From: Acidiferrobacterales bacterium
GTDB lineage: Bacteria > Pseudomonadota > Gammaproteobacteria > Acidiferrobacterales > JAJDNE01
DNA: 59,968 nt
Reading direction: 5' to 3'
NCBI GenBank assembly: GCA_036446455.1
Contig: JAZFSZ010000093.1
Location: 1 to 59,968, forward strand
A model generated the notes under the pieces. The model was not told the origin of the DNA, did not search any database, and saw only the letters and a list, made by a program, of their open reading frames with translations. The position numbers were made by a program, and so were the translations under genes. Shown here in pieces: positions 9,498 through 47,261 of the stretch (position 1 is the first letter of the stretch; each line of letters begins with the position of its first letter).

Positions 9498-10217
9498 ATG
9501 GTATGCCCGGGTACCTCTTGCCCGGCTTGTATCCACCTTGTTTGCATGTTACCCATGCAGACGATGTCCCCGGTCAATACAGTCTCACCTTTGCTATCAT
9601 CTGCCCCGTTTACCTTGTGGGTAACGATACCGTATACAATTTTTCTCGTTATCCTGGTACCCGTTTACTGGGTCTATCTCGGCCCCCAGAATTTTCTCTG
9701 GGCTTGCGATATCGCCTTGTTCATGACCCTGTATGCGCTCTGGCGCCGTTCAGCCCTTGTGGCCAGCATGGCGGTGCTGGTTACCCTGATGCCGGATATC
9801 CTGTGGGTGGCTGATTACGTTGCGCGCGCTGTTAGTGGCAGTGACTTTCTGGGTATCGGTGCCACTGCATATATGTTTGAAAAGTCCGTGCCATTTTTTG
9901 TGCGCGCGTTATCATTTTTTCATTTTTTTCTGGCGCCACTGCTGGTGTGGATGATTTATCACATTGGGTATGATGTACGGGCATTACGCTGGCAAACTGG
10001 TGTTGCCTGGATTGTATTACCGGTAAGTTATTTTTTTACAGATCCTGTGCGCAACATCAACTGGGTTCATGGATTTGCCGGCATCCCGCCAGCGTGGATG
10101 CCACCGGTTGTATTTGTATTGCTTATTATGCTCGCGGTGCCAGTGCTTATATTCTGGCCAACGCATTGGTTGATGCAACGGTTATTTTTTGGAGCGAATA
10201 CATTCAAACGGGCATAG
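9498..10217 (+). CDS. Hypothetical polytopic membrane protein (start uncertain; ATGs at 9555 and 9564 are also possible)
   Basis: 239-aa ORF with 6-7 hydrophobic helices. No family recognised. Confidence 0.5.
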   Translation: MVCPGTSCPACIHLVCMLPMQTMSPVNTVSPLLSSAPFTLWVTIPYTIFLVILVPVYWVYLGPQNFLWACDIALFMTLYALWRRSALVASMAVLVTLMPDILWVADYVARAVSGSDFLGIGATAYMFEKSVPFFVRALSFFHFFLAPLLVWMIYHIGYDVRALRWQTGVAWIVLPVSYFFTDPVRNINWVHGFAGIPPAWMPPVVFVLLIMLAVPVLIFWPTHWLMQRLFFGANTFKRA

Positions 10218-10223
10218 GGAGGC

Positions 10224-10670
10224 CTACTTTGCCCGTAATACAATATCGAACCTGATTTCTTTCAATTTTTTGTTACCAATCCATTGGGTGCCAATGGATT
10301 CAAAGTCTCTGGCACTGACAATGAAGTGTATATGGGGAATTATGGCCGCGGGCCACTCGGTACGGAAACGGTAGCCCCCATTTTTGTCACTAAATAAATA
10401 TGCGCGCAATCGATCCTGGTACTGTCCATTTTCGCCCGCCTGCCAATGAGATATTCTGGCATTGGCAATGGGGCTACAGTCTCTTGCAGAAAGTATGTAA
10501 CCGGATACGATCAGCCCTTGACCAATATCAGTTTTTTGTGTCGTAACGGGCTGGTAGTGAGTGCCTGCGGTTCGGGCAACCGTAGCCGTGCAGTCACGTG
10601 CGAGTGCCGGTTGGCTCGCCAGTATCGCCAGCAATATGGTTGCCGCAGCAAAACGAATAATAGCGGACAT
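10224..10670 (-). CDS. Secreted intradiol-dioxygenase-like protein
   Basis: Signal peptide MSAIIRFAAATILLAILASQPALA. Core resembles the protocatechuate/intradiol dioxygenase fold (ARISHWQAGENGQY...GGYRFRT...PHIHFIV). Confidence 0.55.
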   Translation of the reverse strand: MSAIIRFAAATILLAILASQPALARDCTATVARTAGTHYQPVTTQKTDIGQGLIVSGYILSARDCSPIANARISHWQAGENGQYQDRLRAYLFSDKNGGYRFRTEWPAAIIPHIHFIVSARDFESIGTQWIGNKKLKEIRFDIVLRAK

Positions 10671-10744
10671 TGTGATTTCTTCCTTGGATTAGGGATAACA
10701 TTTTGACAGGTTCGCTACCCCAAGGTTCCCGCAGAAATTATCAA

Positions 10745-11584
10745 TCAGTAATCGGCAACGATATAATTTACCCAGGATTCCTGGTTTTCTTCTTCAGTGG
10801 TCTCGTAATAGTTTCCCGTGCCTTCGAGTTCCTCGTCATCGTCTTCATCTTCGACAAATTCTTCCCAGAAGACCCGTACTTTGCTGAAGCCAGCTTCCTT
10901 CAATAGTTCCGAAATTTCCGGGATGGTCCATAACCGCCAGTCGTAGGTAAAGGCCTTGCGAATTTCAGATCCGTCCGGGAAATTGAAATGAATGTAGCAC
11001 AGCATGTCATGTGTAATTGGATTAAATTTGTCCTGGTCCCAGACGAAGGTAAAGTCCTCGTCATCGACATCACGTTCCTCTTCCAGCTCGTCCATCGTTT
11101 CCGTGCCGCCAAAAATATCGAGAATAAGCATACCGTCTTCTTTCAGACCACGATGTGCGGCTTCAAAATAGGCGCGCAGCTCATCTCGTGCTTTGAAGAT
11201 GTTGTAACTGAAATTGAGGGCACAGGTGATGTCCGCTTTGTCACCAATATTTTCCAGCACGTTGGCGTTGATGAGCCTGACCCGTTCCGGCAGGCTGCCT
11301 CTGGCGGCATCGATATTGTGCCTGCGCCCCCATGCCAGCGTTGGCTCATCGAGATCGATGCCGATTGCAGTGCGGTCGGGATCACTCTCGCACCATTTGA
11401 CCGACAGCAGCGCTGTGCCGCAAAAATCTTCCCGCATAATCAGCGGTTTTTTATGGCGTAACTTGTTGTAGGTTTCGATGAAGAATTCGATATCTGCCTC
11501 AGGCGCCTGTACCGATTCCTGGTAGAGATCGTGAATGTCAGCGAGCTGTGCCTGTGTTCTGTTTTGGTTGTTTTTTGCGTTCAT
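10745..11584 (-). CDS. Class I SAM-dependent methyltransferase
   Basis: SAM-binding motif I (REDFCGTALLS...GIDLD). The internal ATG at 11584 (MNAKNNQ...) is the likely start. The 63-aa upstream extension of the track ORF looks non-coding. Confidence 0.7.
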   Translation of the reverse strand: MNAKNNQNRTQAQLADIHDLYQESVQAPEADIEFFIETYNKLRHKKPLIMREDFCGTALLSVKWCESDPDRTAIGIDLDEPTLAWGRRHNIDAARGSLPERVRLINANVLENIGDKADITCALNFSYNIFKARDELRAYFEAAHRGLKEDGMLILDIFGGTETMDELEEERDVDDEDFTFVWDQDKFNPITHDMLCYIHFNFPDGSEIRKAFTYDWRLWTIPEISELLKEAGFSKVRVFWEEFVEDEDDDEELEGTGNYYETTEEENQESWVNYIVADY

Positions 11585-33900: not shown

Positions 33901-35172
33901 TTCGAGCTACGCCTCAAAGAGGCGTTGCGTAGTGCCAGCTCGGAAGGCATGGAACATGCGCTGTGCTATCTGGATCTCGATCAGTTCAAAGTTGTCAATG
34001 ATACCTGTGGGCACATCGCCGGGGATGAACTGCTCAAGCAGGTAACAGCACGCTTGCGTGAGAAGGTGCGTAAGGCGGATACGCTGGCACGACTGGGTGG
34101 TGATGAGTTTGGCGTGCTATTGCGTGACTGTGGTTTGCCCACGGCAGAAAAAGTGAGCGATGAATTACGCAAGGTGGTGAAGGAGTTTCGTTTTTCCTGG
34201 AAAGATCGCATATTTGAAATCGGTGTCAGTATTGGTCTCGTGCCCATTGATGCCAATAGTGGCACCCTGACTGATATCCTGTCTGCGGCAGACAGCGCCT
34301 GTTATGCCGCCAAGGAACAGGGTCGAAACCGGGTCCACCTGTACCAGCCCGATGACAAGGTACTGGCACAACGTCATGGCGAAATGCAATGGGTTTCCCG
34401 AATCACTACCGCATTGGAAGAGGATCGCCTGGTAATATTCGGTCAGCGAATTCAGTCCCTGAAAAACAGTGCCGGTGATCATTGGGAGATTCTGGTACGT
34501 ATGCATGCTGACCATGGCGGCATCATACCCCCCATGGCGTTCATTCCGGCCGCCGAGCGCTATCATGTTATGCCCGCGATTGATCGCTGGGTGCTTGGGC
34601 GCTCATTCGAACTGATCGCGGAATACACGAAAGAACTGGGAAATCGTGCGCCAATTTTTAATTTTAATCTTTCCGGGCAATCGCTGTCGGATGATACATT
34701 CTGGAAGTTTGTTATTGACCTGATTGATCAACTTGCCATTAATCCGGAGAAAATCTGTTTCGAGATTACTGAAACGGCTGCCATTGCCAACCTCACTCAC
34801 GCGACCCGCTTCATTGCAGTAATGACGGGCATGGGTTGCCGATTTGCACTCGACGATTTCGGAAGTGGATTGAGTTCATTCGCGTACCTCAAAAATCTGA
34901 ACGTTACCTATTTGAAGATTGATGGTGGTTTCGTGCGGGATATGGTTGACGATCCTATTGACTACGCCATGGTGGAATCTATTAATCATGTTGGCCATAC
35001 TTTGGGTATCAAGACCATCGCTGAATTTGTCGAATCAGAAAAGATATTGAATGCGGTAAAAAATCTGGGTATTGACTATGCGCAGGGTTATCAAATTGGC
35101 AAGCCGGTCCCTATAGACGATGACTTCTTTGCAAACCATCTACAAGCCTTCGCAAATAAAGAGGAGTATTAG
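30988..35172 (+). CDS. Large membrane-anchored signalling protein: multi-TM N-terminal domain, GAF, about 4 PAS, GGDEF, EAL
   Basis: 1394 aa. RKAD..GGDEF is canonical. EAL set is EILVRM, FEITET, DDFGSGLSS, KIDGGF, AEFVES. TTG start, so the start is uncertain. Confidence 0.8.
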   Translation: MEYDSISAHAFKRKFGQLILITWLVPPVFSLSFLLFIRLLTPEQIGIILLTPIEPVFIIASLLFAYWYLNRCIKPVVQFLGEGGILLSETALNSMRRFPLHYWGLFIAYLLLAPASVIIAAEIYTDFVARPVDWFRIHLVALIVSIIVGLPIFFRILDLFGRAVSKAVLTRPHVTLKTKVFLIGALVPLLISTTLVQYYWTRTGYFGVDTFAMWLILELLAIVGSLLFMRSMGQSLQPLQELIESQAQVGAMDVTQIRALSTDELGVIASDIRVLAEQLKLQNEILEIRNQILAGSSSEMKEEAIISILDICDAAFGADKSFILMYDASTNEMVNVAFTGKEYNANGYYRLPLTSGASLAVLSFKANQTISIADVTQDKRVNPLVMEQQGILSCIATPLRYGDAIIGTLIATSSTQHREFNERDVRLIEALAQETALVIHTLTLHQEQRKVEQRYRELNELAPDAILLLDSDANIVELNRTAEVLLGGREEDLVGRSVTKFIKNCEPEDLESVMLRATVGDKRLFQAELIAGNSEDVFVEIHAARLELDGKVMTQAFVRDVTRQKEAERALLLSQEKLALHVEQTPLGVIEWNTDFEVVEWNPSAEKIFGYTKKEALSRHARDLIIPESTLAHVDEIWAALVNQSGGLRSTNENITRDNNIIICEWYNTPLVNDSGDVVGVASLVRDVTDSKFAEDSIRRSEKELSSILNSLQDTFYRTDVVGRIVRVSPSVENLLGYKPEELLGTKLSDLYVDETGQKALIRELEKQNGVIKGYQVALWRKDKTAIWASTNAQYYFSDDGSIAGVEGTARDITKIRRTQEELFKEKERAQVTLESIGDGVVTTDVSGGIEYINPVAEQICGWNLDAAEGHSFEEVFCFLEEVTRQPVESPVMQCLEKRHPISSDVNIVLVGKQGREFAIEFSASPIRDRFGGLAGVVVGLHDVTEMRELAQQLTHQATHDALTGLINRREFELRLKEALRSASSEGMEHALCYLDLDQFKVVNDTCGHIAGDELLKQVTARLREKVRKADTLARLGGDEFGVLLRDCGLPTAEKVSDELRKVVKEFRFSWKDRIFEIGVSIGLVPIDANSGTLTDILSAADSACYAAKEQGRNRVHLYQPDDKVLAQRHGEMQWVSRITTALEEDRLVIFGQRIQSLKNSAGDHWEILVRMHADHGGIIPPMAFIPAAERYHVMPAIDRWVLGRSFELIAEYTKELGNRAPIFNFNLSGQSLSDDTFWKFVIDLIDQLAINPEKICFEITETAAIANLTHATRFIAVMTGMGCRFALDDFGSGLSSFAYLKNLNVTYLKIDGGFVRDMVDDPIDYAMVESINHVGHTLGIKTIAEFVESEKILNAVKNLGIDYAQGYQIGKPVPIDDDFFANHLQAFANKEEY

Positions 35173-35239
35173 AAACTATTCGTTGTAGCCCGACCTGGAA
35201 AAGCTGGAAATAACCAATAAAATATTTTGTGGAGTTAAC

Positions 35240-35623
35240 ATGAGGATATTGCACACCATGATCAGGGTGGGTGAGCTGGACCGTTCTATTGAATTTTATT
35301 CTGACGTGCTGGGCATGCAGTTGTTGCGAAAGAAAGATTACCCGGACGGAAAATTTACACTGGCTTTTATAGGTTACGGGCCGGAGTCAGAAGGGGCGGT
35401 CATCGAACTTACCCATAACTGGGAGACCAAAGAATACAGACTTGGAAACGGATTTGGCCACATCGCCATTCAGGTTGATGATGCCTATGCCGCATGCGAG
35501 GCAATAAAAAAGCGTGGCGGTAATGTAGTCCGCGAGGCGGGGCCAATGAAACATGGATCTACCGTCATCGCCTTCATTGAAGATCCAGACGGCTATAAAA
35601 TAGAACTTATCCAGCGGAAATAG
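35240..35623 (+). CDS. gloA: Lactoylglutathione lyase (glyoxalase I)
   Basis: 127 aa. [20 protein letters not shown]...GFGHIA...[12 protein letters not shown] is typical of GloA. Confidence 0.9.
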
Positions 35624-35851
35624 TTTGGGGCGCCGGCAGCGGTATTTGCTGCTATTTTGCCGCAATCGGTCCTGGCAGCCCGATGGATTTGTTTGCGTGC
35701 TGAAGGCTTGGTAGGAGCCCTCTACCAACGAGGCACAAATCCAGAGGGCGATTTTTTACCTTTGATTAGAAAATGGTTTTGCTCCGCCTGCACTTCAGAA
35801 TTCCTACGGGCTTCACCAAGCACGACGTGCAGGATGCACTAGTGCCGTGAA

Positions 35852-36461: not shown

Positions 36462-37331
36462 ATGATACCAGGTACCTTCGAATATCATGCACCGACCAGT
36501 TTGGCTGATGCCGTGTCGTTGCTTGCGCAATACGGTGAAGATGCGAAAATTCTAGCAGGCGGGCATAGTATTTTGCCCATGATGAAACTCCGTTTTGCAG
36601 AGCCTGCGCATCTAATAGATATTAACGGTATTAATGAGTTACGCGGTGTGCGCGAGGAGGGCGGCCAGATTTACATCGGTGCCATGACCACCGAAACCCA
36701 ACTAATTGCATCGCAGTTATTGTGGGATAAATGCCCGCTGATTCCTGAAGCGGCAAAACAGATTGCCGATCCACAAGTAAGAAACAAGGGCACCATTGGT
36801 GGCGATATTGTCCATGGTGATCCCGGTAATGATCATCCTGCCATCATGATGGCCGTCGGTGCCTCGTTTGTGCTAGCCGGTGCCAAGGGTGAGCGCACTG
36901 TCGCTGCCGATGGCTTCTTCCTCGGTACCTATAGCACCCAGCTCGATGAAGGCGAAATCCTGACAGAGATCCAGGTGCCTGTTCCCCCCGCTGGTAGCGG
37001 TTACAGTTTTAGCAAACTGAAACGCAAAACCGGTGACTTCGCTACCGCAGCAGCAGCTGTTCAATTGCAAATGAGCGGCGATACCTGCAGCCAGATCAAT
37101 ATCACCATGATCAATGTTGGCCCAATGGCACTCAAGGCCAGTGATGCCGAGCAACATTTGACTGGCAAAGTGATCGACGAAACCTTAATCATCGAAGCCG
37201 CAGAAAAGGCGATGGCGATTTGTGATCCGGTCGAAGATCTGCGCGGTGACGTTGAATATAAAACCCACATGGCGGGTGAGATGGTGCGTCGCGCCATTCG
37301 TCAGGCCGTGTCTCGGGCGAAAGGGGAATAA
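36462..37331 (+). CDS. coxM: Aerobic CO dehydrogenase medium (FAD-binding) subunit
   Basis: 289 aa. FAD-binding PCMH-type domain (KILAGGHSILPMMKLR), SD GGAGGA, and first gene of an M-S-L triplet. Confidence 0.85.
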   Translation: MIPGTFEYHAPTSLADAVSLLAQYGEDAKILAGGHSILPMMKLRFAEPAHLIDINGINELRGVREEGGQIYIGAMTTETQLIASQLLWDKCPLIPEAAKQIADPQVRNKGTIGGDIVHGDPGNDHPAIMMAVGASFVLAGAKGERTVAADGFFLGTYSTQLDEGEILTEIQVPVPPAGSGYSFSKLKRKTGDFATAAAAVQLQMSGDTCSQINITMINVGPMALKASDAEQHLTGKVIDETLIIEAAEKAMAICDPVEDLRGDVEYKTHMAGEMVRRAIRQAVSRAKGE

Positions 37332-37334
37332 AAG

Positions 37335-37811
37335 ATGGCGAAGACACATATTCAATTCAAGCTGAATGGCCAGGAAGTCGAGGCGCTGGTAGAACCACGT
37401 GAGTTGCTGATACACGTGATCCGTGAACAACTTGGGCAGACCGGTAGTCACATTGGTTGCGAAACCAGCCACTGTGGTGCCTGTACCGTTGACCTGAACG
37501 GCGAGTCGATCAAGTCATGTACTGTGCTGGCCGTACAGGCCAATGGCTGTGAAGTGATGACCATTGAAGGGCTGGCCCTGAATGGTGAACTGCACCCTAT
37601 TCAAGAGGCCTTTATGCAGGAACATGGTCTGCAATGCGGTTTCTGTACTCCGGGCATGATAATACGGGCTTATCGCTTCTTGCAGGAAAACCCTAACCCG
37701 ACTGAAGAAGAGATTCGTTACGGCATGTCGGGCAACCTGTGTCGTTGCACTGGTTACCAAAATATCATCAAGGCAGTTCAAGTGGCTGCCCAGAAAATGC
37801 AATCAGAATAA
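37335..37811 (+). CDS. coxS: CO dehydrogenase small subunit, two [2Fe-2S] clusters
   Basis: 158 aa. Cys motifs [11 protein letters not shown] and CGFCTPGM...CRCTGY. Confidence 0.9.
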
Positions 37812-40343: not shown

Positions 40344-40928
40344 ATGAAAGTGGAAATAGATAAAGTTTTTGCAATGGATGCACCTTCCAGTAACGCCTGG
40401 AAGTTTCTGCAGGACATTCATAATGTGGCTAGCTGTATGCCGGGTGCCAGGATTACCGAGCAAGTGGATGACGCGAATTACAAGGGCGCTGTCAAGGTCA
40501 AGGTTGGCCCGGCGACCATGGCCTTCAAGGGCACTATTTCGGTGTTGGGCGTCGATGCCAACAAGCGCGAACTGAAGATGCGCGGCAAAGGTACGGATGT
40601 TAAAGGTACCTCGTCTGCCACCATGGATCTGACCGCCAGCGTACGTGAAACCGGAGACGGTAAATGCGAAGTGATCGGCGTTGCCGAAGTAACTGTCACC
40701 GGCAAGATAGCCAGTCTCGGTGGTCGCATGATGCAGCAGGTGTCGGATCAGATTCTGAACCAATTTGGTGCCAATCTTGTGAATAACGTCGTCGCCATGG
40801 GTGAGGGTGCTGCTGCTGAGGAGGCTGCGACGAAAGTGGCAGACCAGCCGAAGGAACTTAACGGCCTGGCCTTTGCCTGGGGTTTGTTTATCGCGTTTCT
40901 CAAGAACCTGTTTAGGGGCAAGTCATAG
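40344..40928 (+). CDS. coxG: CoxG-like SRPBCC protein with C-terminal hydrophobic anchor
   Basis: 194 aa. CoxG-type N-terminal domain (FLQDIHNVASCMPGA) and C-terminal LNGLAFAWGLFIAFLKNLF. Confidence 0.7.
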   Translation: MKVEIDKVFAMDAPSSNAWKFLQDIHNVASCMPGARITEQVDDANYKGAVKVKVGPATMAFKGTISVLGVDANKRELKMRGKGTDVKGTSSATMDLTASVRETGDGKCEVIGVAEVTVTGKIASLGGRMMQQVSDQILNQFGANLVNNVVAMGEGAAAEEAATKVADQPKELNGLAFAWGLFIAFLKNLFRGKS

Positions 40929-41035: not shown

Positions 41036-41914
41036 ATGACAGACATCTCACAGTTTCAAACCCGCCTGGCCGAGGCCGGTTATGTGACCGAGAACAATCT
41101 CGCCGCTACCCTGTTATTGCAGACCAGATTACAACGCCCATTGTTGCTTGAGGGGGATGCCGGTGTCGGCAAGACCGAGATCGCCAAGACCCTGGCCAAA
41201 GTATTTAATTGTCCACTGATCCGGCTGCAGTGTTATGAAGGTCTGGATATAAATTCAGCCGTGTATGAATGGAACTATCAGCATCAATTGTTGACTATCA
41301 AGATGCAGGAAACAGAGGGCGGTTCGCAGGCCAGTAAAGAGCAGCATATCTTTAGTGAGAAATATCTGCTCAAGCGGCCTTTGCTTCAGGCCATTACCAT
41401 GGACAAGCCGCCGGTATTGTTGGTAGATGAAATTGACAGGGCCGACGAAGAGTTCGAGGCCTACCTTCTTGAAGTGTTGTCTGATTTTCAGATCAGTATT
41501 CCCGAATTGGGCACAATCAAGGCGAGCTCCAAGCCCTATGTGGTTTTGACGTCCAACGGCACTCGCGAGTTGAGTGATGCCTTGCGTCGTCGTTGCCTCT
41601 ATCACTATGTCGATTATCCAAGTTTCGATAAAGAACTGCGCATCGTTCATATACATTTGCCCGAGATCAGCCAACGCCTGGCAGGTCAGGTAGTGGAATA
41701 CGTGCAGGCGCTGCGCAAAATGGAGCTGCGCAAGATCCCTGGTATTGCCGAGACTCTGGATTGGGCGGCAGCGCTGTTGAAAATGAATATCTTGTCACTG
41801 GATAAAGATCCAGAGCTGATCATGAACACCCTGGTCTGCCTGTTAAAGACCAGGGAAGATCATGATGCGATTACCAAAGATGTTTCCGATCGTTTAATCG
41901 CAAGGGCGGGGTAA
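41036..41914 (+). CDS. coxD: MoxR-type AAA+ ATPase (CoxD-like CODH maturation factor)
   Basis: Walker A GDAGVGKTE and Walker B LLVDEIDRA. Length of 292 aa and its position after coxG fit. Confidence 0.8.
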   Translation: MTDISQFQTRLAEAGYVTENNLAATLLLQTRLQRPLLLEGDAGVGKTEIAKTLAKVFNCPLIRLQCYEGLDINSAVYEWNYQHQLLTIKMQETEGGSQASKEQHIFSEKYLLKRPLLQAITMDKPPVLLVDEIDRADEEFEAYLLEVLSDFQISIPELGTIKASSKPYVVLTSNGTRELSDALRRRCLYHYVDYPSFDKELRIVHIHLPEISQRLAGQVVEYVQALRKMELRKIPGIAETLDWAAALLKMNILSLDKDPELIMNTLVCLLKTREDHDAITKDVSDRLIARAG

Positions 41915-41916
41915 CG

Positions 41917-43095
41917 ATGAGTGCGAGCCAGCAAAAAGAGTTTGCAGAGCTGACGGAGTCACTGCTCGGGCATCTGGTTGGTTTTCTGCGTTTCATGCGC
42001 GGCAATGGCTATCACCTCGGCATCCAGGAAGAGCTGGATGTAATGAAGATGGCAGAGTTCAGTGGCCTGCTGGAACCACAGCGGATGCGGTGGGGTTTAC
42101 GTGCCCTGCTATGTTCCAGCAGCGATGATTGGCAGCGTTTTAACAAGCTGTTTGATTCCTACTGGAATCCGGACACTCGAACTCGAGAACAGCGTCACAA
42201 TTATTCAAACAAAATGGATAGCAGGAATGGCCCGGGTGGCCAGCACGGTGGTGGCAGCCAGGTGGCTGAGGCCGACAATGCTGAGCAGGGCGATGCCAGC
42301 GATGCCGGTGACGGTGGCAGCAAAGGCGGTGCCAGCGCCCAGGAAGCCCTGGCCCGCAAAGACTTTCGCCTGCTGGCGGATGCGTCACAGATGCGTGAGA
42401 TGGAGTTCCTGGTGGAACGTCTGGCGAAACGGATGCGCCGTCGTCTGATGCGCAGATACCGGCTGCAACAGCATGGTCATCGTATCCATTTTCGCCGCAC
42501 CATTCGCAACAGTCTGCGTTATGGTGGCACGCCCCTGGACCTGGCCTTTAGACAACGCAACAAACAGTTACCGCGTCTGATCCTGTTACTCGATGTCAGC
42601 CGCTCCATGAGCCTGTACAGTTTTCTGTTTTTGCGTTTTGCCCGCGGCATCGTAGAGGCGTTTAAAGATGCCGATGTCTTTGTCTATCACACCCGGCTAG
42701 TGCATGTCACAGATGCCCTGCGAGAACGTGACATGATCAAGGTCAAAGAGAAGCTAGTGTTGATGTCGGCCGGTTGGTCCGGTGGTACCCGCATCGGCGA
42801 ATGTTTGCAGCTGTTTAATCTCGACTATGGTCGCCGTATTGTTAATTCACGCTCAGTGGTAATAATCGTCAGTGATGGTTATGACACCGGTGAGCCGCAA
42901 CTACTGGCGCAACAGCTGCAACAGTTGAAGCAACGGACCCGAAAAATCGTCTGGCTGAATCCGTTGCTGGGACGTGATGGTTATGAACCGATTGCTGGTG
43001 GAATGCGGGCGGCGATGCCGTTTCTCGATCTGTTTGCCCCGGCCCATAATTTGGAGAGCCTGTTGAAACTGGAATCTGATTTGATAAAGCTCTAG
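41917..43095 (+). CDS. coxE: VWA-domain protein (CoxE-like)
   Basis: 392 aa. C-terminal VWA with MIDAS-like LLLDVSRSMS. Gly/Asp/Ala-rich linker. Starts 3 nt after the coxD stop. Confidence 0.75.
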   Translation: MSASQQKEFAELTESLLGHLVGFLRFMRGNGYHLGIQEELDVMKMAEFSGLLEPQRMRWGLRALLCSSSDDWQRFNKLFDSYWNPDTRTREQRHNYSNKMDSRNGPGGQHGGGSQVAEADNAEQGDASDAGDGGSKGGASAQEALARKDFRLLADASQMREMEFLVERLAKRMRRRLMRRYRLQQHGHRIHFRRTIRNSLRYGGTPLDLAFRQRNKQLPRLILLLDVSRSMSLYSFLFLRFARGIVEAFKDADVFVYHTRLVHVTDALRERDMIKVKEKLVLMSAGWSGGTRIGECLQLFNLDYGRRIVNSRSVVIIVSDGYDTGEPQLLAQQLQQLKQRTRKIVWLNPLLGRDGYEPIAGGMRAAMPFLDLFAPAHNLESLLKLESDLIKL

Positions 43096-43107
43096 GGACT
43101 CGAAACG

Positions 43108-44124
43108 ATGAGACTGGAAAGTGATGCAATATTGGATAAAGCTGCCCGCCTCAAGGCCGAGGGTAAACCCTTTGCCCTGGTGACCGTGGTGCGGGTTGTT
43201 TCGCCCACCTCGGCCAAGCCGGGAGCCAAGGCAGTGGTCGAACCGGATGGCGTGATCCAGGGTTGGATCGGTGGTGGCTGCGCCCAGCCGGCGGTGATCA
43301 AGACAGCGAAAAAGGTTTTGCAGGAAGGTCTGGCGCGTTTGATTCGCATCAGTCCGACCAGGGATGGATATGTGGAGGAGGGAATCACTGATTTTGGAAT
43401 GACCTGTCATAGTGGAGGTACCTTGGATATTTTTATCGACCCCGTTATCCCGCGTCCCGTTTTGTTGGTAATCGGCGCTTCACCGGCGGCTCAGGCTCTG
43501 GTGGGGCTGGCCCAGCGCGTTGGTTTCTCTGTCACCGCTGCATTTACCGGAGCGGATGCCGAGATGTTTCCTGACGCAGATAGAATCATCGACGGTTTTG
43601 ATGTGGCTGATGTCTCGCCCAGTTTTGTTGTGGTTGCGACACAGGGTAAGCGCGATGAGCAAGGCCTGGAAGCGGCAATCAGTATTGGTGCAGTCTATAT
43701 TGCTTTTATTGCCAGTGAACGCAAGGCGACAAAGTTGAAAACCTATTTAAAAGAGAATGGGTGTGATGCTGATCGAGTCGACGCCATCATTTCACCTGCG
43801 GGTGTCGAGATAGAGGCGGTGACGCCGGAAGAGATTGCCCTGTCGGTGCTGGCCGGAGTAGTGAAGGCGCGTCGTGAGGGTGTGGCTGTGCCACAGCCTG
43901 CAGTAGCAAGTAGTGAAATTGGTTCCAGCTACAGTGATTCGACAAAGGCAGAAGTAAAACCTGAACCAAAACCAGCCACCGCAATCGATCCCATTTGCGG
44001 AATGTCGGTAGAAACGAAAGACGCCGAGTATCAAAGCGAATACAAGGGAAAAACCTATTATTTTTGCTGTGGCGGGTGTGAGCACCGCTTTGAAAATGAG
44101 CCGGAAAAATACTTGAGAGCATGA
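43108..44124 (+). CDS. XdhC/CoxI-family maturation protein fused to a C-terminal YHS/TRASH-type metal-binding domain
   Basis: XdhC N-domain (ALVTVVRVVSPTSAKPGAKAVV...GWIGGGC) and Rossmann-like XdhC_C (LLVIGASPAAQAL). The last roughly 45 aa, DPICGMSVETKDAEYQSEYKGKTYYFCCGGCEHRFENEPEKY (nt 43987-44121), match the YHS pattern. Confidence 0.75.
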   Translation: MRLESDAILDKAARLKAEGKPFALVTVVRVVSPTSAKPGAKAVVEPDGVIQGWIGGGCAQPAVIKTAKKVLQEGLARLIRISPTRDGYVEEGITDFGMTCHSGGTLDIFIDPVIPRPVLLVIGASPAAQALVGLAQRVGFSVTAAFTGADAEMFPDADRIIDGFDVADVSPSFVVVATQGKRDEQGLEAAISIGAVYIAFIASERKATKLKTYLKENGCDADRVDAIISPAGVEIEAVTPEEIALSVLAGVVKARREGVAVPQPAVASSEIGSSYSDSTKAEVKPEPKPATAIDPICGMSVETKDAEYQSEYKGKTYYFCCGGCEHRFENEPEKYLRA

Positions 44125-44747
44125 CAACAGTATCAGCAGTGTTATTGGCGGCAGGCGTATCGCGCCGCATGGGTGAGGTCAACAAGCTTGAATTGCTGGT
44201 TGATGGCGTTCCCTTGCTGCGCCGTGCGGCAGAAACCCTGCTTGCCTCAAGGTTGCAAGAGATCGTTGTCGTGTTGGGCCATCAGGCAGAAAAGGCTGGC
44301 TCTATGCTGGAGGGTTTGCCGCTTCATACTATATATAACGAAGCCTATCGTGATGGTCAGATGACTTCGGTTTATCAGGGGTTGTCGTCTCTGTCGCAAA
44401 CTTGCGATGGGGTAATGATCTGTCTGGCAGACCAGCCCTTGTTGCAAACAGATGATGTAAACGTTTTGATCGAGGCATTTGGCAAGTGCAATCACGGGCG
44501 TGGTCATGGTTCTATACTGGTGCCTACTTTCCAGGGCAAGCGCGGTAATCCCATCGTCCTCGACTATCAGCACCGACTGGAGATTTTGAACGGTGAGCGT
44601 AATCTCGGTTGTAAAAAACTAATCGATAAAAATCCCGGGCAGGTCAGCAGTTTTGAAATGAGCAATAACCATGTGGTGGTTGATCTCGATACACCGGAAC
44701 AATACGCGGCCTTAACGGCAGGACAGAGTGAGACTATGACCTCATAA
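44121..44747 (+). CDS. mocA: Molybdenum cofactor cytidylyltransferase (MobA/MocA-like nucleotidyltransferase)
   Basis: N-terminal AVLLAAGVSRRMG. 208 aa. Its start overlaps the preceding stop (ATGA). Confidence 0.7.
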   Translation: MTTVSAVLLAAGVSRRMGEVNKLELLVDGVPLLRRAAETLLASRLQEIVVVLGHQAEKAGSMLEGLPLHTIYNEAYRDGQMTSVYQGLSSLSQTCDGVMICLADQPLLQTDDVNVLIEAFGKCNHGRGHGSILVPTFQGKRGNPIVLDYQHRLEILNGERNLGCKKLIDKNPGQVSSFEMSNNHVVVDLDTPEQYAALTAGQSETMTS

Positions 44748-44764
44748 AATAGCGGCATATTGCG

Positions 44765-45586
44765 ATGGCTAAAGAGATTATCGATGTACTAGTGGAGATG
44801 CGTGAAAAGGGTAAACCTTATGCGGTGGCCACTGTGATCGAAACCATCGGTTCTGTCTCGGCTAAAACTGGTTCCAAGGCTGTCATCGATCATGAGGGCA
44901 GGATTGTGGCCGGTTGGGTTGGCGGTGGCTGCGCCGAGTCGACCACTTGTGATGAAGCACTGCAATGCATGCGCAATGACAAAAGCTCGGTGATAGATAT
45001 CGATCTGGATGATGAAGTATTAGGTGCAAGCATGCCCTGCGGTGGGAGTATGCGTGTGTATGTTGAACCGGTATTACCACGCCCAAGCCTGTGGTTGATG
45101 GGCCATGGTCGTGTTGCGGAATGTCTGTGTCAGATGGCTGATCTGATGGGGTTGAATGTGATTGTTAACGATCCAGTCATCAACCGGGAAAAATATCCGG
45201 CTGCTAAAAAACTGATCACTGATGATCTCGACTATGAACAACTGCAACCTGAAGACGGTGACTATGTGGTGATAGCGACTCAGCACAAGGGTGATCATGA
45301 ATCCATGAAGCGGGCGCTGGCCTCCAAGGCGAAATACATTGCCCTGATCGCCAGCCGCAAGCGCTCACGCCTGGTGCTGGACTATCTGCATCGTGAAGGT
45401 TTTGGTGAGAATGATTTGCAGCGCGTCATGGCACCTTCCGGACTGGATCTCGGGGCGCGGACGCCAGAAGAGATTGCCCTCTGTGTTATTAGTGAAATTG
45501 TGCTGGTGCGTCGTCAGGGGAGCGGCATGCGCATGCGCGACAAGCTAATGCAGGAAGCGCAACAGGCTAAGCGGGTAAAGGCTTAA
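44765..45586 (+). CDS. Second XdhC/CoxI-family maturation protein
   Basis: 273 aa. AVATVIETIGSVSAKTGSKAVI...GWVGGGC and a Rossmann-like C-domain. Confidence 0.75.
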   Translation: MAKEIIDVLVEMREKGKPYAVATVIETIGSVSAKTGSKAVIDHEGRIVAGWVGGGCAESTTCDEALQCMRNDKSSVIDIDLDDEVLGASMPCGGSMRVYVEPVLPRPSLWLMGHGRVAECLCQMADLMGLNVIVNDPVINREKYPAAKKLITDDLDYEQLQPEDGDYVVIATQHKGDHESMKRALASKAKYIALIASRKRSRLVLDYLHREGFGENDLQRVMAPSGLDLGARTPEEIALCVISEIVLVRRQGSGMRMRDKLMQEAQQAKRVKA

Positions 45587-45590
45587 GTCG

Positions 45591-46841
45591 ATGCTGGATA
45601 CCGTAATTAAATTCAGCCCGCTCGATGTGTTGGATGTAGCAACCATCCGAGCTGGCTTTCCTTTGTTGGCCAGGGCGGGTGAGTCACTGCATTATCTTGA
45701 CAATGCCGCTACCACCCAGAAACCCCATGCGGTGATTGATGCCATCGGCGACTGTTATCGCCGTCACTATGCGCCGGTACATCGGGGTCTGTATCCGTTG
45801 GCAGAAGAGGCCAGTCATCGTTATGAAATTGCGCGCAGCACGGTAGCGAAATTTATCGGTGCACCTGGCGATCAGTTGATCTTCACTCGTTCTGCGACGG
45901 AGTCCATTAACCTGGTGGCGCAAGGTTGGGTGCGCCCACGTCTGCACCAGGGGGATCAGGTATGGGTAACGCGGATGGAGCATCACTCCAATTATTTGCC
46001 CTGGCAGGTCTTGTGTCGTGAAACCGGGGCGCAGCTACGCATTATTGATCTTAAGGCAGATGGCTCACTGGATTTTGACAGCTGTTCCAGCCTGTATGGC
46101 TCACGTACCAGACTGATTGCCGTGACTCATGCTTCCAATGTGTTGGGTGTGATCAATCCGGTTAAAGAGATATGTGCACGGGCAGCGGAACAGGGCATTG
46201 CGGTGATGGTTGATGCTGCCCAGTCAGTGGGGCATATGCCTGTTGACGTCGCTGAGCTGGGTTGTGATTTTCTCGCCTTTTCCGCTCATAAGATGTTTGG
46301 CCCAACCGGCATTGGTGCGCTGTATGGCAAGGCTGAGCGACTGTCCGGGATGGAGCCGCTATTGTTGGGTGGCGGCATGGTGGATAGTGTTGGTGAGCGC
46401 GACAGCAGCTGGGCGCCGTACCCGGCAAAGTTCGAAGCCGGTTCGCAGAATCTTGCCGATGCTCTGGGTTTTGCTGCAGCGGTGAATTGGCTGGGGAACA
46501 TCGGCATGGCTGCAATGCATAGCCATACAACACGGTTGACCCGGTATGCGCTGGATACCTTGTCGAAGATGAGTGGCGTGGAGATCTATGGTCCGCGCGA
46601 TGTGCATGAACGCGTTGGCATAGTTTCTTTCAATCTGGCAGATGTGCATCCCCATGACGTTGCCCAGGTCGCCGCCGAGCGTGGCGTCGCCATCCGTGCC
46701 GGTCACCACTGTTGCCAGCTGCTAATGCAGCATCTGGGCGTGGCCGCCACCGCACGGGCCAGTTTCGCACCCTATAACGACCGGAACGATGTCGATGCCC
46801 TGGCCGATGCCATCCGTGCCGCACAGGCCGTGTTTGAATAA
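45591..46841 (+). CDS. sufS: SufS-type (group II) cysteine desulfurase
   Basis: 416 aa. PLP Lys in FSAHKMFGPTGIG. Catalytic Cys loop RAGHHCCQLLM. Confidence 0.8.
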   Translation: MLDTVIKFSPLDVLDVATIRAGFPLLARAGESLHYLDNAATTQKPHAVIDAIGDCYRRHYAPVHRGLYPLAEEASHRYEIARSTVAKFIGAPGDQLIFTRSATESINLVAQGWVRPRLHQGDQVWVTRMEHHSNYLPWQVLCRETGAQLRIIDLKADGSLDFDSCSSLYGSRTRLIAVTHASNVLGVINPVKEICARAAEQGIAVMVDAAQSVGHMPVDVAELGCDFLAFSAHKMFGPTGIGALYGKAERLSGMEPLLLGGGMVDSVGERDSSWAPYPAKFEAGSQNLADALGFAAAVNWLGNIGMAAMHSHTTRLTRYALDTLSKMSGVEIYGPRDVHERVGIVSFNLADVHPHDVAQVAAERGVAIRAGHHCCQLLMQHLGVAATARASFAPYNDRNDVDALADAIRAAQAVFE

Positions 46842-46847
46842 GGCTTT

Positions 46848-47261
46848 ATGAGTGATATCAGCATTTACAAAGAGGTGTTGATGGATCACTACCGCAATCC
46901 ACGCAATCGTGGTGACCTGACCGATGCCGACGTGGTGCGCCGCGGCAGTAATCCTCGTTGTGGTGATGATATTGAAGTGGGTGTGAATTTTGAAGATGGC
47001 ATGCTTGGCAAGGTAATGTTCCGTGGTCGCGGTTGTTCAATCTGTCTGGCTTCAGCCTCGATGATGACCGTGGCAGTGAGCGGCAAGAGTAAACGGGATG
47101 CCCATCAACTGGCAGAAGGCATGAAGACCTGGTTCAGCGCTGATGGTGGAGAACCTGCCAGGAGCTTGCAAGCACTGCAGGCGGTGCGCGGCTACTCCGC
47201 TCGCAAGCGTTGTGTATTACTGGCCTGGGAGGCACTGGATGATGCGCTTGCAGCTGAGTGA
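46848..47261 (+). CDS. sufU: SufU/IscU-like sulfur acceptor/scaffold protein
   Basis: 137 aa. YRNPRNRG...NPRCGDDI...GRGCSICLASASMM is typical of SufU (three Cys ligands). Confidence 0.8.
   Translation: MSDISIYKEVLMDHYRNPRNRGDLTDADVVRRGSNPRCGDDIEVGVNFEDGMLGKVMFRGRGCSICLASASMMTVAVSGKSKRDAHQLAEGMKTWFSADGGEPARSLQALQAVRGYSARKRCVLLAWEALDDALAAE

Follow-up and report, generated by a model that had tools for sequence, protein, structure and literature searches.

A CoxF-type XdhC chaperone with a C-terminal YHS domain in form-I carbon monoxide dehydrogenase clusters: a candidate module for copper delivery

Aerobic Mo-Cu carbon monoxide (CO) dehydrogenase takes up a large share of atmospheric CO. The route by which copper enters this enzyme has been approached in a sole model, Oligotropha (Afipia) carboxidovorans, where it leans on weak short motifs in CoxF, a protein without an obvious metal site. 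In that organism, coxE and coxF mutants make an enzyme that is sulfurated and Cu-free, and CoxF has been put forward as the Cu carrier; sulfuration itself depends on CoxD and persists without CoxE or CoxF (PMC4240915). Here, we describe a coxF gene at positions 43108-44124 (+ strand) of a 59,968-nucleotide (nt) stretch of DNA from an Acidiferrobacterales bacterium (contig JAZFSZ010000093.1 of assembly GCA_036446455.1; "the window" hereafter means this whole stretch), whose product carries a YHS domain behind the XdhC-type core.

YHS domains have been linked to copper in a different setting. More specifically, such a domain confers Cu-specific activation on the adenylyl cyclase of M. phlei, and an Asp-plus-three-Cys pattern has been proposed for Cu binding by it (PMC4626032). 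In the open-access literature, we found nothing tying XdhC or CoxF to YHS or TRASH domains. Our analysis indicates that most of the sampled CoxF orthologues carry a predicted soft-metal module, which is confined to clusters of the Cu-type enzyme and gives way to a different thiolate module in some lineages. This gives the copper route a concrete and mutable candidate element of ~45 residues with three invariant Cys that can be put to the test.

Domain architecture and conservation of the CoxF-YHS protein

The gene is a stop-free open reading frame (ORF) encoding 338 amino acids (aa; P0001), in which XdhC_CoxI, XdhC_C, and YHS domains each score above the Pfam gathering threshold (Table 1). AlphaFold2, run on a 45-sequence alignment, returned a mean predicted local distance difference test score (pLDDT) of 90.3, with a confident core and YHS domain and a disordered linker between them. 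The modelled core matches the XdhC structures 3on5 and 2we8 (probability 1.00, E 1e-17 to 1e-19), and its XdhC_CoxI domain contains a GGxC motif with C58, which is invariant across 134 XdhC rows. The linker is rich in Ser, Pro, Ala, Glu, and Lys, contains no Cys, and is predicted to be disordered (pLDDT 40-49 at about residues 260-280). The YHS domain modelled in isolation reached a pLDDT of 88.9; its fold matches are weak (Foldseek E >= 0.06, VIA Z <= 5.3) and point to a zinc-ribbon/TRASH-like fold, which says nothing of metal specificity.

A preliminary description of this DNA, made from its letters alone, had proposed an XdhC chaperone with a C-terminal YHS domain, and the Pfam scan recovers exactly this architecture; the peptide that it quoted (DPICGMSVE...EPEKY) is identical to residues 294-335. 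Two of its labels need narrowing. The domain had been called YHS/TRASH-type, and only the first half of that name holds: YHS scores well above its cut-off, whereas the specific TRASH models PF24273 and PF08394 give 22.2 and 16.9 bits, respectively, below the cut-off of 27, so that the domain is a YHS domain proper with a related fold. In addition, the linker had been termed acidic and Lys-rich, which suits its Glu and Lys content but, given its richness in Ser, Pro, and Ala, is only partly apt. No Pfam match to HMA was obtained in the window protein.

The residues of the YHS ligand pattern (D294, C297, M299, C320, and C324) are all present in the window protein, whose YHS domain scores 68.7 bits in a profile scan of its own genome. 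Conservation was computed over 77 fusions, in which C297, C320, C324, and F319 are conserved at 100%, D294, P295, and V301 at 99%, and M299 at 97%. The window protein has the pattern D-x2-C ... C-x3-C, whose residues (D294, C297, C320, and C324) are 99-100% conserved. The linkers of these fusions are Ala/Pro/Glu-rich, with a median length of 19 aa. As an alternative to metal delivery, the YHS domain could serve as a zinc ribbon of purely structural use, docking CoxF onto CoxL, CoxE, or CoxD and holding no transferable metal. The four Cys of the window domain (297, 320, 321, and 324) would suit such a ribbon, but the fourth, C321, is found in only 66% of the fusions, as compared with 99% for Asp294 and 97% for Met299, and a docking role also sits uneasily with linkers that vary in length from 6 to 80 aa.

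Far from being rare, the XdhC-YHS fusion is the form in which CoxF is most often encountered in the sampled sets. Nearly all of the best 120 clusters at 90% identity (61-84% identical) have the three-domain architecture, although their database labels read merely "XdhC family protein" or "xanthine dehydrogenase accessory factor"; we caution against the latter label for coxF-YHS genes. Among the 150 best representatives at 50% identity, 104 have a C-terminal YHS domain; two have it in tandem, and in four MocA, XdhC, and YHS are joined in a triple fusion. Such triple fusions (P0149, P0170, P0204, and P0263) and XdhC-MocA fusions (P0153 and P0237) mirror the 4-nt overlap of coxF and mocA in the window. 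Cultured carriers of the fusion include Thermomicrobium roseum, Saccharospirillum impatiens, Caballeronia, Paraburkholderia aromaticivorans, Natronorubrum bangense, and a Deinococcus. In T. roseum, coxMSL is followed directly by the XdhC-YHS gene.

Genomic context and orthology

With the window's own proteins, a YHS hidden Markov model, and the CoxL loop motif, we annotated three sets of loci. Set (a) comprises the best 80 genome loci, one genome per species, gathered by similarity from an 11-sequence CoxF alignment. It spans more than 12 phyla (Pseudomonadota, Chloroflexota, Acidobacteriota, Actinomycetota, Bacteroidota, Myxococcota, Gemmatimonadota, and Deinococcota, with Methylomirabilota, Rokubacteria, Dormibacterota, Halobacteria, and Thermoplasmata as further groups). 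Set (b) consists of 400 evenly drawn Gammaproteobacteria genomes, including four (G079, G180, G334, and G346) that gave weak partial matches only and count in the tally alone. Set (c) holds 80 metagenome loci gathered by CoxF similarity.

Across the three sets, 87 YHS-XdhC genes with a readable CoxL loop lie beside a form-I CoxL. The form-I loop AY[RSA]CSFR was found in the locus of 47 YHS-XdhC genes of set (a), and 16 more are on contigs too short to judge; in one ambiguous case (L045), the gene is preceded by a divergent form-II cluster and followed by coxG-coxM-coxS, where the contig ends. The fusion occurs in 10 of the 400 genomes of set (b), including the window's own. Of the other nine, form-I clusters account for eight and a decayed remnant for one, and no YHS was found on the XdhCs of two form-II clusters and five non-cox loci in this set. 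Set (c) contributed 32 YHS genes and 3 HMA genes beside form-I CoxL, with the rest on short contigs. Collectively, these counts support a restriction of the XdhC-YHS fusion to form-I clusters, intact or decayed, as no fusion was seen to adjoin a form-II enzyme or another Mo hydroxylase apart from the ambiguous L045. The survey of fusion context that the preliminary description had proposed thus yielded no case next to a Cu-independent molybdoenzyme in the three sets.

Two candidate exceptions were considered and rejected. The genome G153 has an intact XdhC-YHS gene in a decayed cox cluster (L122:8776-10509), with a coxS fragment (CGFCTPG...CRCTG) fused in frame upstream; CoxL was not found in this genome, which is 84% complete. 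In G038, a genome of the same order, a truncated XdhC_C-YHS adjoins coxG and a coxL fragment and represents a cox remnant. Separately, the CoxL of G171 (L129:5171-7759) is 73% identical to that of the window and has the loop variant AYRCSLR (Phe to Leu), which we counted as form I; the CoxF-YHS of this genome has an insertion within the core.

Trees were computed on the core with the YHS columns excluded, using FastTree for 134 rows and a quick IQ-TREE run (LG+C20 PMSF) for 66 rows. All YHS rows fall within one CoxF clade (FastTree 99; IQ-TREE SH-aLRT, the approximate likelihood ratio test, 94). The CoxF rows without YHS come from Alphaproteobacteria, Betaproteobacteria, and a few Gammaproteobacteria; they are nested within a single proteobacterial subclade (99/98), which also holds YHS-bearing gammaproteobacterial proteins. 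The second XdhC of the window operon, which lacks YHS, is placed in a separate clade (IQ-TREE 99, FastTree 93) together with the XdhCs of form-II and non-cox loci. A division of labour between the two window paralogues had been suggested at the outset, and their placement agrees with it, the YHS protein belonging to the form-I-specific CoxF clade. On the paralogue-rooted tree, the most parsimonious history would be a single gain of YHS at the base of CoxF followed by at least two losses within Pseudomonadota.

The model CoxF of A. carboxidovorans is not among the tree rows and was compared directly. When the window protein was searched against plasmid pHCG3 by tblastn, the sole match at E <= 1e-10 was coxF (34840-35682), not coxI, with 43% identity over window residues 8-258. 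The CoxF clade is further marked by a two-residue insert behind the Cys common to the whole family, which yields C-x-S-G-G, with an invariant Ser, in 94 of 94 members, as opposed to C-G-G in 40 other XdhCs; in the window, this stretch lies at 43399-43419 (aa 98-104) and includes MTCHS, where the model CoxF has MCPSH. Clade, pHCG3 match, and insert together identify the window protein, at the level of sequence, as a CoxF orthologue rather than a CoxI or a generic XdhC, and C-x-S-G-G could serve as a sequence marker for CoxF. As to the motif MCPSHGTM, proposed as a Cu motif in the model CoxF, its Cys is invariant in all 134 XdhCs, including the non-cox ones, and is therefore not Cu-specific. We rejected this core motif as a YHS-independent Cu site.

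Replacement of the YHS domain and a proposed route for copper

Some CoxF orthologues carry a different thiolate module in place of YHS. Four relatives that are 78-88% identical over the matched region (P0018, P0025, P0027, and P0101) have no YHS and end in an SSCCG...SSCCGGG or similar tail; at 43930-43950, the window linker reads SSYSDS where these relatives read SSCCGS. Betaproteobacterial form-I CoxFs have long Ala/Pro-rich linkers ending in one or two CCGG-like motifs, alphaproteobacterial CoxFs, including that of the model, have short Cys-free ends, and CC tails are absent from the second-paralogue clade. CC-containing tails were counted in 26 of the 43 YHS-less 50%-identity representatives with a complete core. 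In the lineage of P0167, the YHS position is taken by an HMA domain (40.9 bits against a cut-off of 24.8; M-x-C-x-x-C), and the nearest relatives carry YHS; the loci of this lineage (L151 [9785-11035], L152, and L153) are complete form-I clusters of the order coxMSLGDE-[XdhC-HMA]-mocA. We also observed a CC motif in the linker of about half of the close YHS-bearing homologues.

That three unrelated thiolate modules occupy one place, and do so only beside the Cu enzyme, argues for soft-metal handling over a fixed docking surface. These swaps favour a module that binds a soft metal through thiolates, with Cu(I) as the likeliest candidate, over a zinc ribbon with a structural role alone. Given the domain content and its distribution, the window protein is probably the CoxF maturation factor of form-I (Mo-S-Cu) CO dehydrogenase, in which the tethered YHS domain would bind and deliver Cu(I).

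The domain architecture, its restriction to form-I clusters, the conserved ligand residues, and the module swaps are seen in the sequences themselves; from them, we infer the identity of the metal, the direction of its transfer, and the partners as follows. The XdhC-type core would act as the chaperone at the molybdenum cofactor (Moco) and the apo-enzyme, while the YHS domain, on its disordered tether of ~33 residues, would hold a single soft metal ion, in all likelihood Cu(I), via Cys297, Cys320, and Cys324, with Asp294 or Met299 as a possible further ligand. The Cu(I) would come from the cytosolic pool or from CopZ-like chaperones, and the YHS domain would offer it to two partners in the sulfurated active site, the sulfido ligand on Mo and the AYRCSFR-loop Cys. 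As in the model organism, the apo-enzyme on which CoxD (AAA+), CoxE (VWA), and the CoxF core work would already be folded and sulfurated. Synthesis, sulfuration, and insertion of the molybdopterin cytosine dinucleotide cofactor would fall to the second XdhC, MocA, and SufS/SufU.

A more specific version holds that the tethered CoxF module itself donates Cu(I) directly to the Mo-S-Cu centre, that YHS is its ancestral form, for which CCGG tails and HMA are interchangeable substitutes, and that the model organism has lost the module; we rate its chances as about even. If true, the loss of the module in the sole studied model would explain the still-missing copper donor of aerobic CO dehydrogenase, and as a direct donor CoxF would be the first XdhC-type chaperone shown to supply an already installed molybdenum cofactor with a second metal.

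The same domain could instead be a copper sensor that switches the chaperone on when Cu is available, without being a donor. A C-terminal YHS domain is the Cu-dependent activator in the M. phlei cyclase (PMC4626032), and a sensor would accord with the YHS-less CoxF that still works in Alphaproteobacteria. However, nothing points to a switchable enzymatic or allosteric activity of the XdhC core, and the HMA and Cys-tail replacements are typical of metallochaperones. We regard a sensor as improbable; it overlaps with copper delivery in that both require Cu binding.

Several points weigh against copper delivery by the YHS domain. Form-I clusters whose CoxF has neither YHS nor a Cys tail exist in Alphaproteobacteria, including the model, and in some Gammaproteobacteria, and in G166 the gene order is otherwise identical to that of the window and CoxF is tail-less. 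Since some form-I CoxFs have neither, the module can be dispensed with or replaced, and the alpha-, beta-, and some gammaproteobacterial CoxFs without YHS indicate that this domain is not essential for Cu insertion. The genetics that tie CoxF to Cu insertion come from the YHS-less model protein only (PMC4240915). Sets (a) and (c) were gathered by similarity and are therefore enriched in orthologues, which leaves set (b) and the paralogues of the window's own genome as the only unbiased controls. The trees were built without bootstraps, and their root on the paralogue clades is assumed.

In addition, the closest solved YHS-type domains, those of the phenol hydroxylase, ToMO, and sMMO alpha subunits and the L24e-type zinc ribbon, have no Cu site, and the phenol hydroxylase (PHN) domain presumably holds a Cys4 zinc. 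Because its nearest solved relatives are non-copper proteins (PHN, ToMOH, MMOH, L24e, and the FCS/MYND/HIT zinc fingers), a structural zinc site in the YHS domain has to be reckoned with. The orthologues that swap the domain for unstructured CCGG tails or HMA nevertheless fit metal binding better, and we consider the zinc ribbon unlikely, if somewhat less so than the sensor.

The cox operon and comparison with known systems

The coxF-YHS gene takes seventh place in a compact + strand operon, which runs coxM, coxS, coxL, coxG, coxD, coxE, coxF-YHS, mocA, the second xdhC, sufS, and sufU (Table 1). A gap of 12 nt separates it from the stop of coxE, and its end shares 4 nt with the start of mocA; from coxD to sufU, the intergenic gaps range from -4 to 17 nt. 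The TIGR02416 score of its CoxL and the AYRCSFR loop make this a form-I cluster. The SufS-SufU pair (45591-47261) that ends the operon also follows the XdhC in the form-II cluster L135 and in G166 (L132), so that the pair goes along with XdhCs of the second-paralogue type rather than with the YHS domain.

Table 1. Coordinates of the coxF-YHS gene, its encoded domains, and the neighbouring genes of the window operon
Feature	Positions	Strand	Basis
CoxF-type XdhC chaperone with C-terminal YHS, 338 aa (P0001)	43108..44124	+	ORF, translation, Pfam
XdhC_CoxI N-terminal domain, aa 16-81	43153..43350	+	PF02625, 72.5 bits (cut-off 24.3)
XdhC_C Rossmann-like domain, aa 119-250	43462..43857	+	PF13478, 86.5 bits (cut-off 29.7)
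Flexible linker, ~aa 259-291	43882..43980	+	AlphaFold2 pLDDT 40-49; Cys-free in the window protein
YHS domain, aa 293-337	43984..44118	+	PF04945, 64.5 bits (cut-off 30.3), E 8.7e-18
coxM, FAD subunit	36462..37331	+	FAD_binding_5 and CO_deh_flav_C
coxS, [2Fe-2S] subunit	37335..37811	+	Fer2_2 and Fer2
coxL, form-I large subunit, AYRCSFR loop	37820..40219	+	TIGR02416, 1424 bits (cut-off 991)
coxG	40344..40928	+	Pfam COXG
coxD, MoxR-type AAA+ ATPase	41036..41914	+	AAA_5 and AAA
coxE, VWA protein	41917..43095	+	VWA_CoxE, 202.5 bits
mocA-like Moco cytidylyltransferase	44121..44747	+	NTP_transf_3; TIGR03310, 140.5 bits, below cut-off 186
Second XdhC paralogue, without YHS	44765..45586	+	XdhC_CoxI and XdhC_C
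sufS-type cysteine desulfurase	45591..46841	+	TIGR01979, 516 bits (cut-off 475)
sufU-type sulfur acceptor	46848..47261	+	TIGR01994, 125 bits (cut-off 92.5)

The presence of sufS and sufU in the same operon raises the further idea that the Cys-rich C-terminus is a persulfide relay carrying sulfur from SufS/SufU to the bridging sulfido ligand, and CC tails could indeed hold persulfides. Most YHS-bearing clusters, however, have no sufS nearby, the XdhCs of two form-II clusters lack the module even though L135 has sufS-sufU, and HMA and YHS are metal-binding folds that are also found on Cu pumps. Moreover, sulfuration in the model organism needs CoxD and takes place without CoxE or CoxF (PMC4240915). 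We deem such a relay very improbable, the least credible of the alternatives.

The assembly that contains the window (2.2 Mb, 161 contigs, 89% complete) has three XdhC_C genes in total, the third of which lacks YHS and adjoins a distant Mo hydroxylase. This second Mo hydroxylase cluster (G000:C59:21198-30160; locus L238:1198-10160) comprises coxM-like, coxS-like, and large-subunit genes; its large subunit is 26% identical to CoxL and has neither the form-I nor the form-II loop. CopZ-like HMA ORFs and P1B-ATPases are present in the genome, the former being possible Cu donors to CoxF. Only one further YHS was found, a stand-alone ORF of ~66 aa. It lies at a contig end (G000:C84:10194-10340, - strand; locus L150), just upstream of a gene for an ICMT/PEMT-like membrane methyltransferase.

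The nearest described counterpart is the CoxF of Afipia (Oligotropha) carboxidovorans OM5 (pHCG3, 280 aa), which has the same XdhC_CoxI and XdhC_C core and is encoded directly after coxD-coxE in a form-I cluster; the window CoxF shares its clade with other alphaproteobacterial proteins encoded at the CoxF position. The model protein ends ~20 residues past the core, with neither YHS nor Cys, whereas the window CoxF adds a tether and a YHS domain. The sequence RHGQRQS, proposed in the model CoxF as a histidine acid phytase motif, opens a short basic tail (RR.GQR). This tail is common to several alphaproteobacterial CoxFs (L148:6983-7825 of A. carboxidovorans, L031, L035, L038, and L058) and absent from the CoxF tails compared from other groups.

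The XdhC of Rhodobacter capsulatus and generic XdhC/PaoD proteins share with the window protein the two-domain fold and both invariant Cys. The enzymes served by generic XdhCs are Cu-free, and a metal-binding tail is absent from these chaperones; it is the second paralogue, not CoxF-YHS, that groups with them.

The YHS domain has its own set of relatives. The window domain (about residues 290-337) is 40-64% identical to the N-terminal YHS domains of long frames, and the two of these frames that were scanned score as copper ATPases of the CopA type. The Pfam family and the D-x-x-C...C-x3-C pattern are common to the window domain, CopA-type Cu P1B-ATPases, and the M. phlei cyclase; the carrier differs, being a pump or a cyclase there and a cofactor chaperone here. 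Among solved structures, the best match in both sequence (E 1e-4) and fold (TM 0.65) is the C-terminal YHS-like domain of the phenol hydroxylase PHN (2inp/2inn), which does not form a copper site and is built into a di-iron hydroxylase.

Finally, UreE, HypB, and CooJ have His-rich metal-binding tails, and CopZ/Atx1 have the HMA fold. These metallochaperones differ from CoxF in fold and metal and have no homology to the XdhC core. By analogy, the tailed ones nevertheless present the same arrangement as CoxF with its YHS domain, CCGG tail, or HMA domain, namely, a maturation factor with a flexible, dispensable, and variable appendage.

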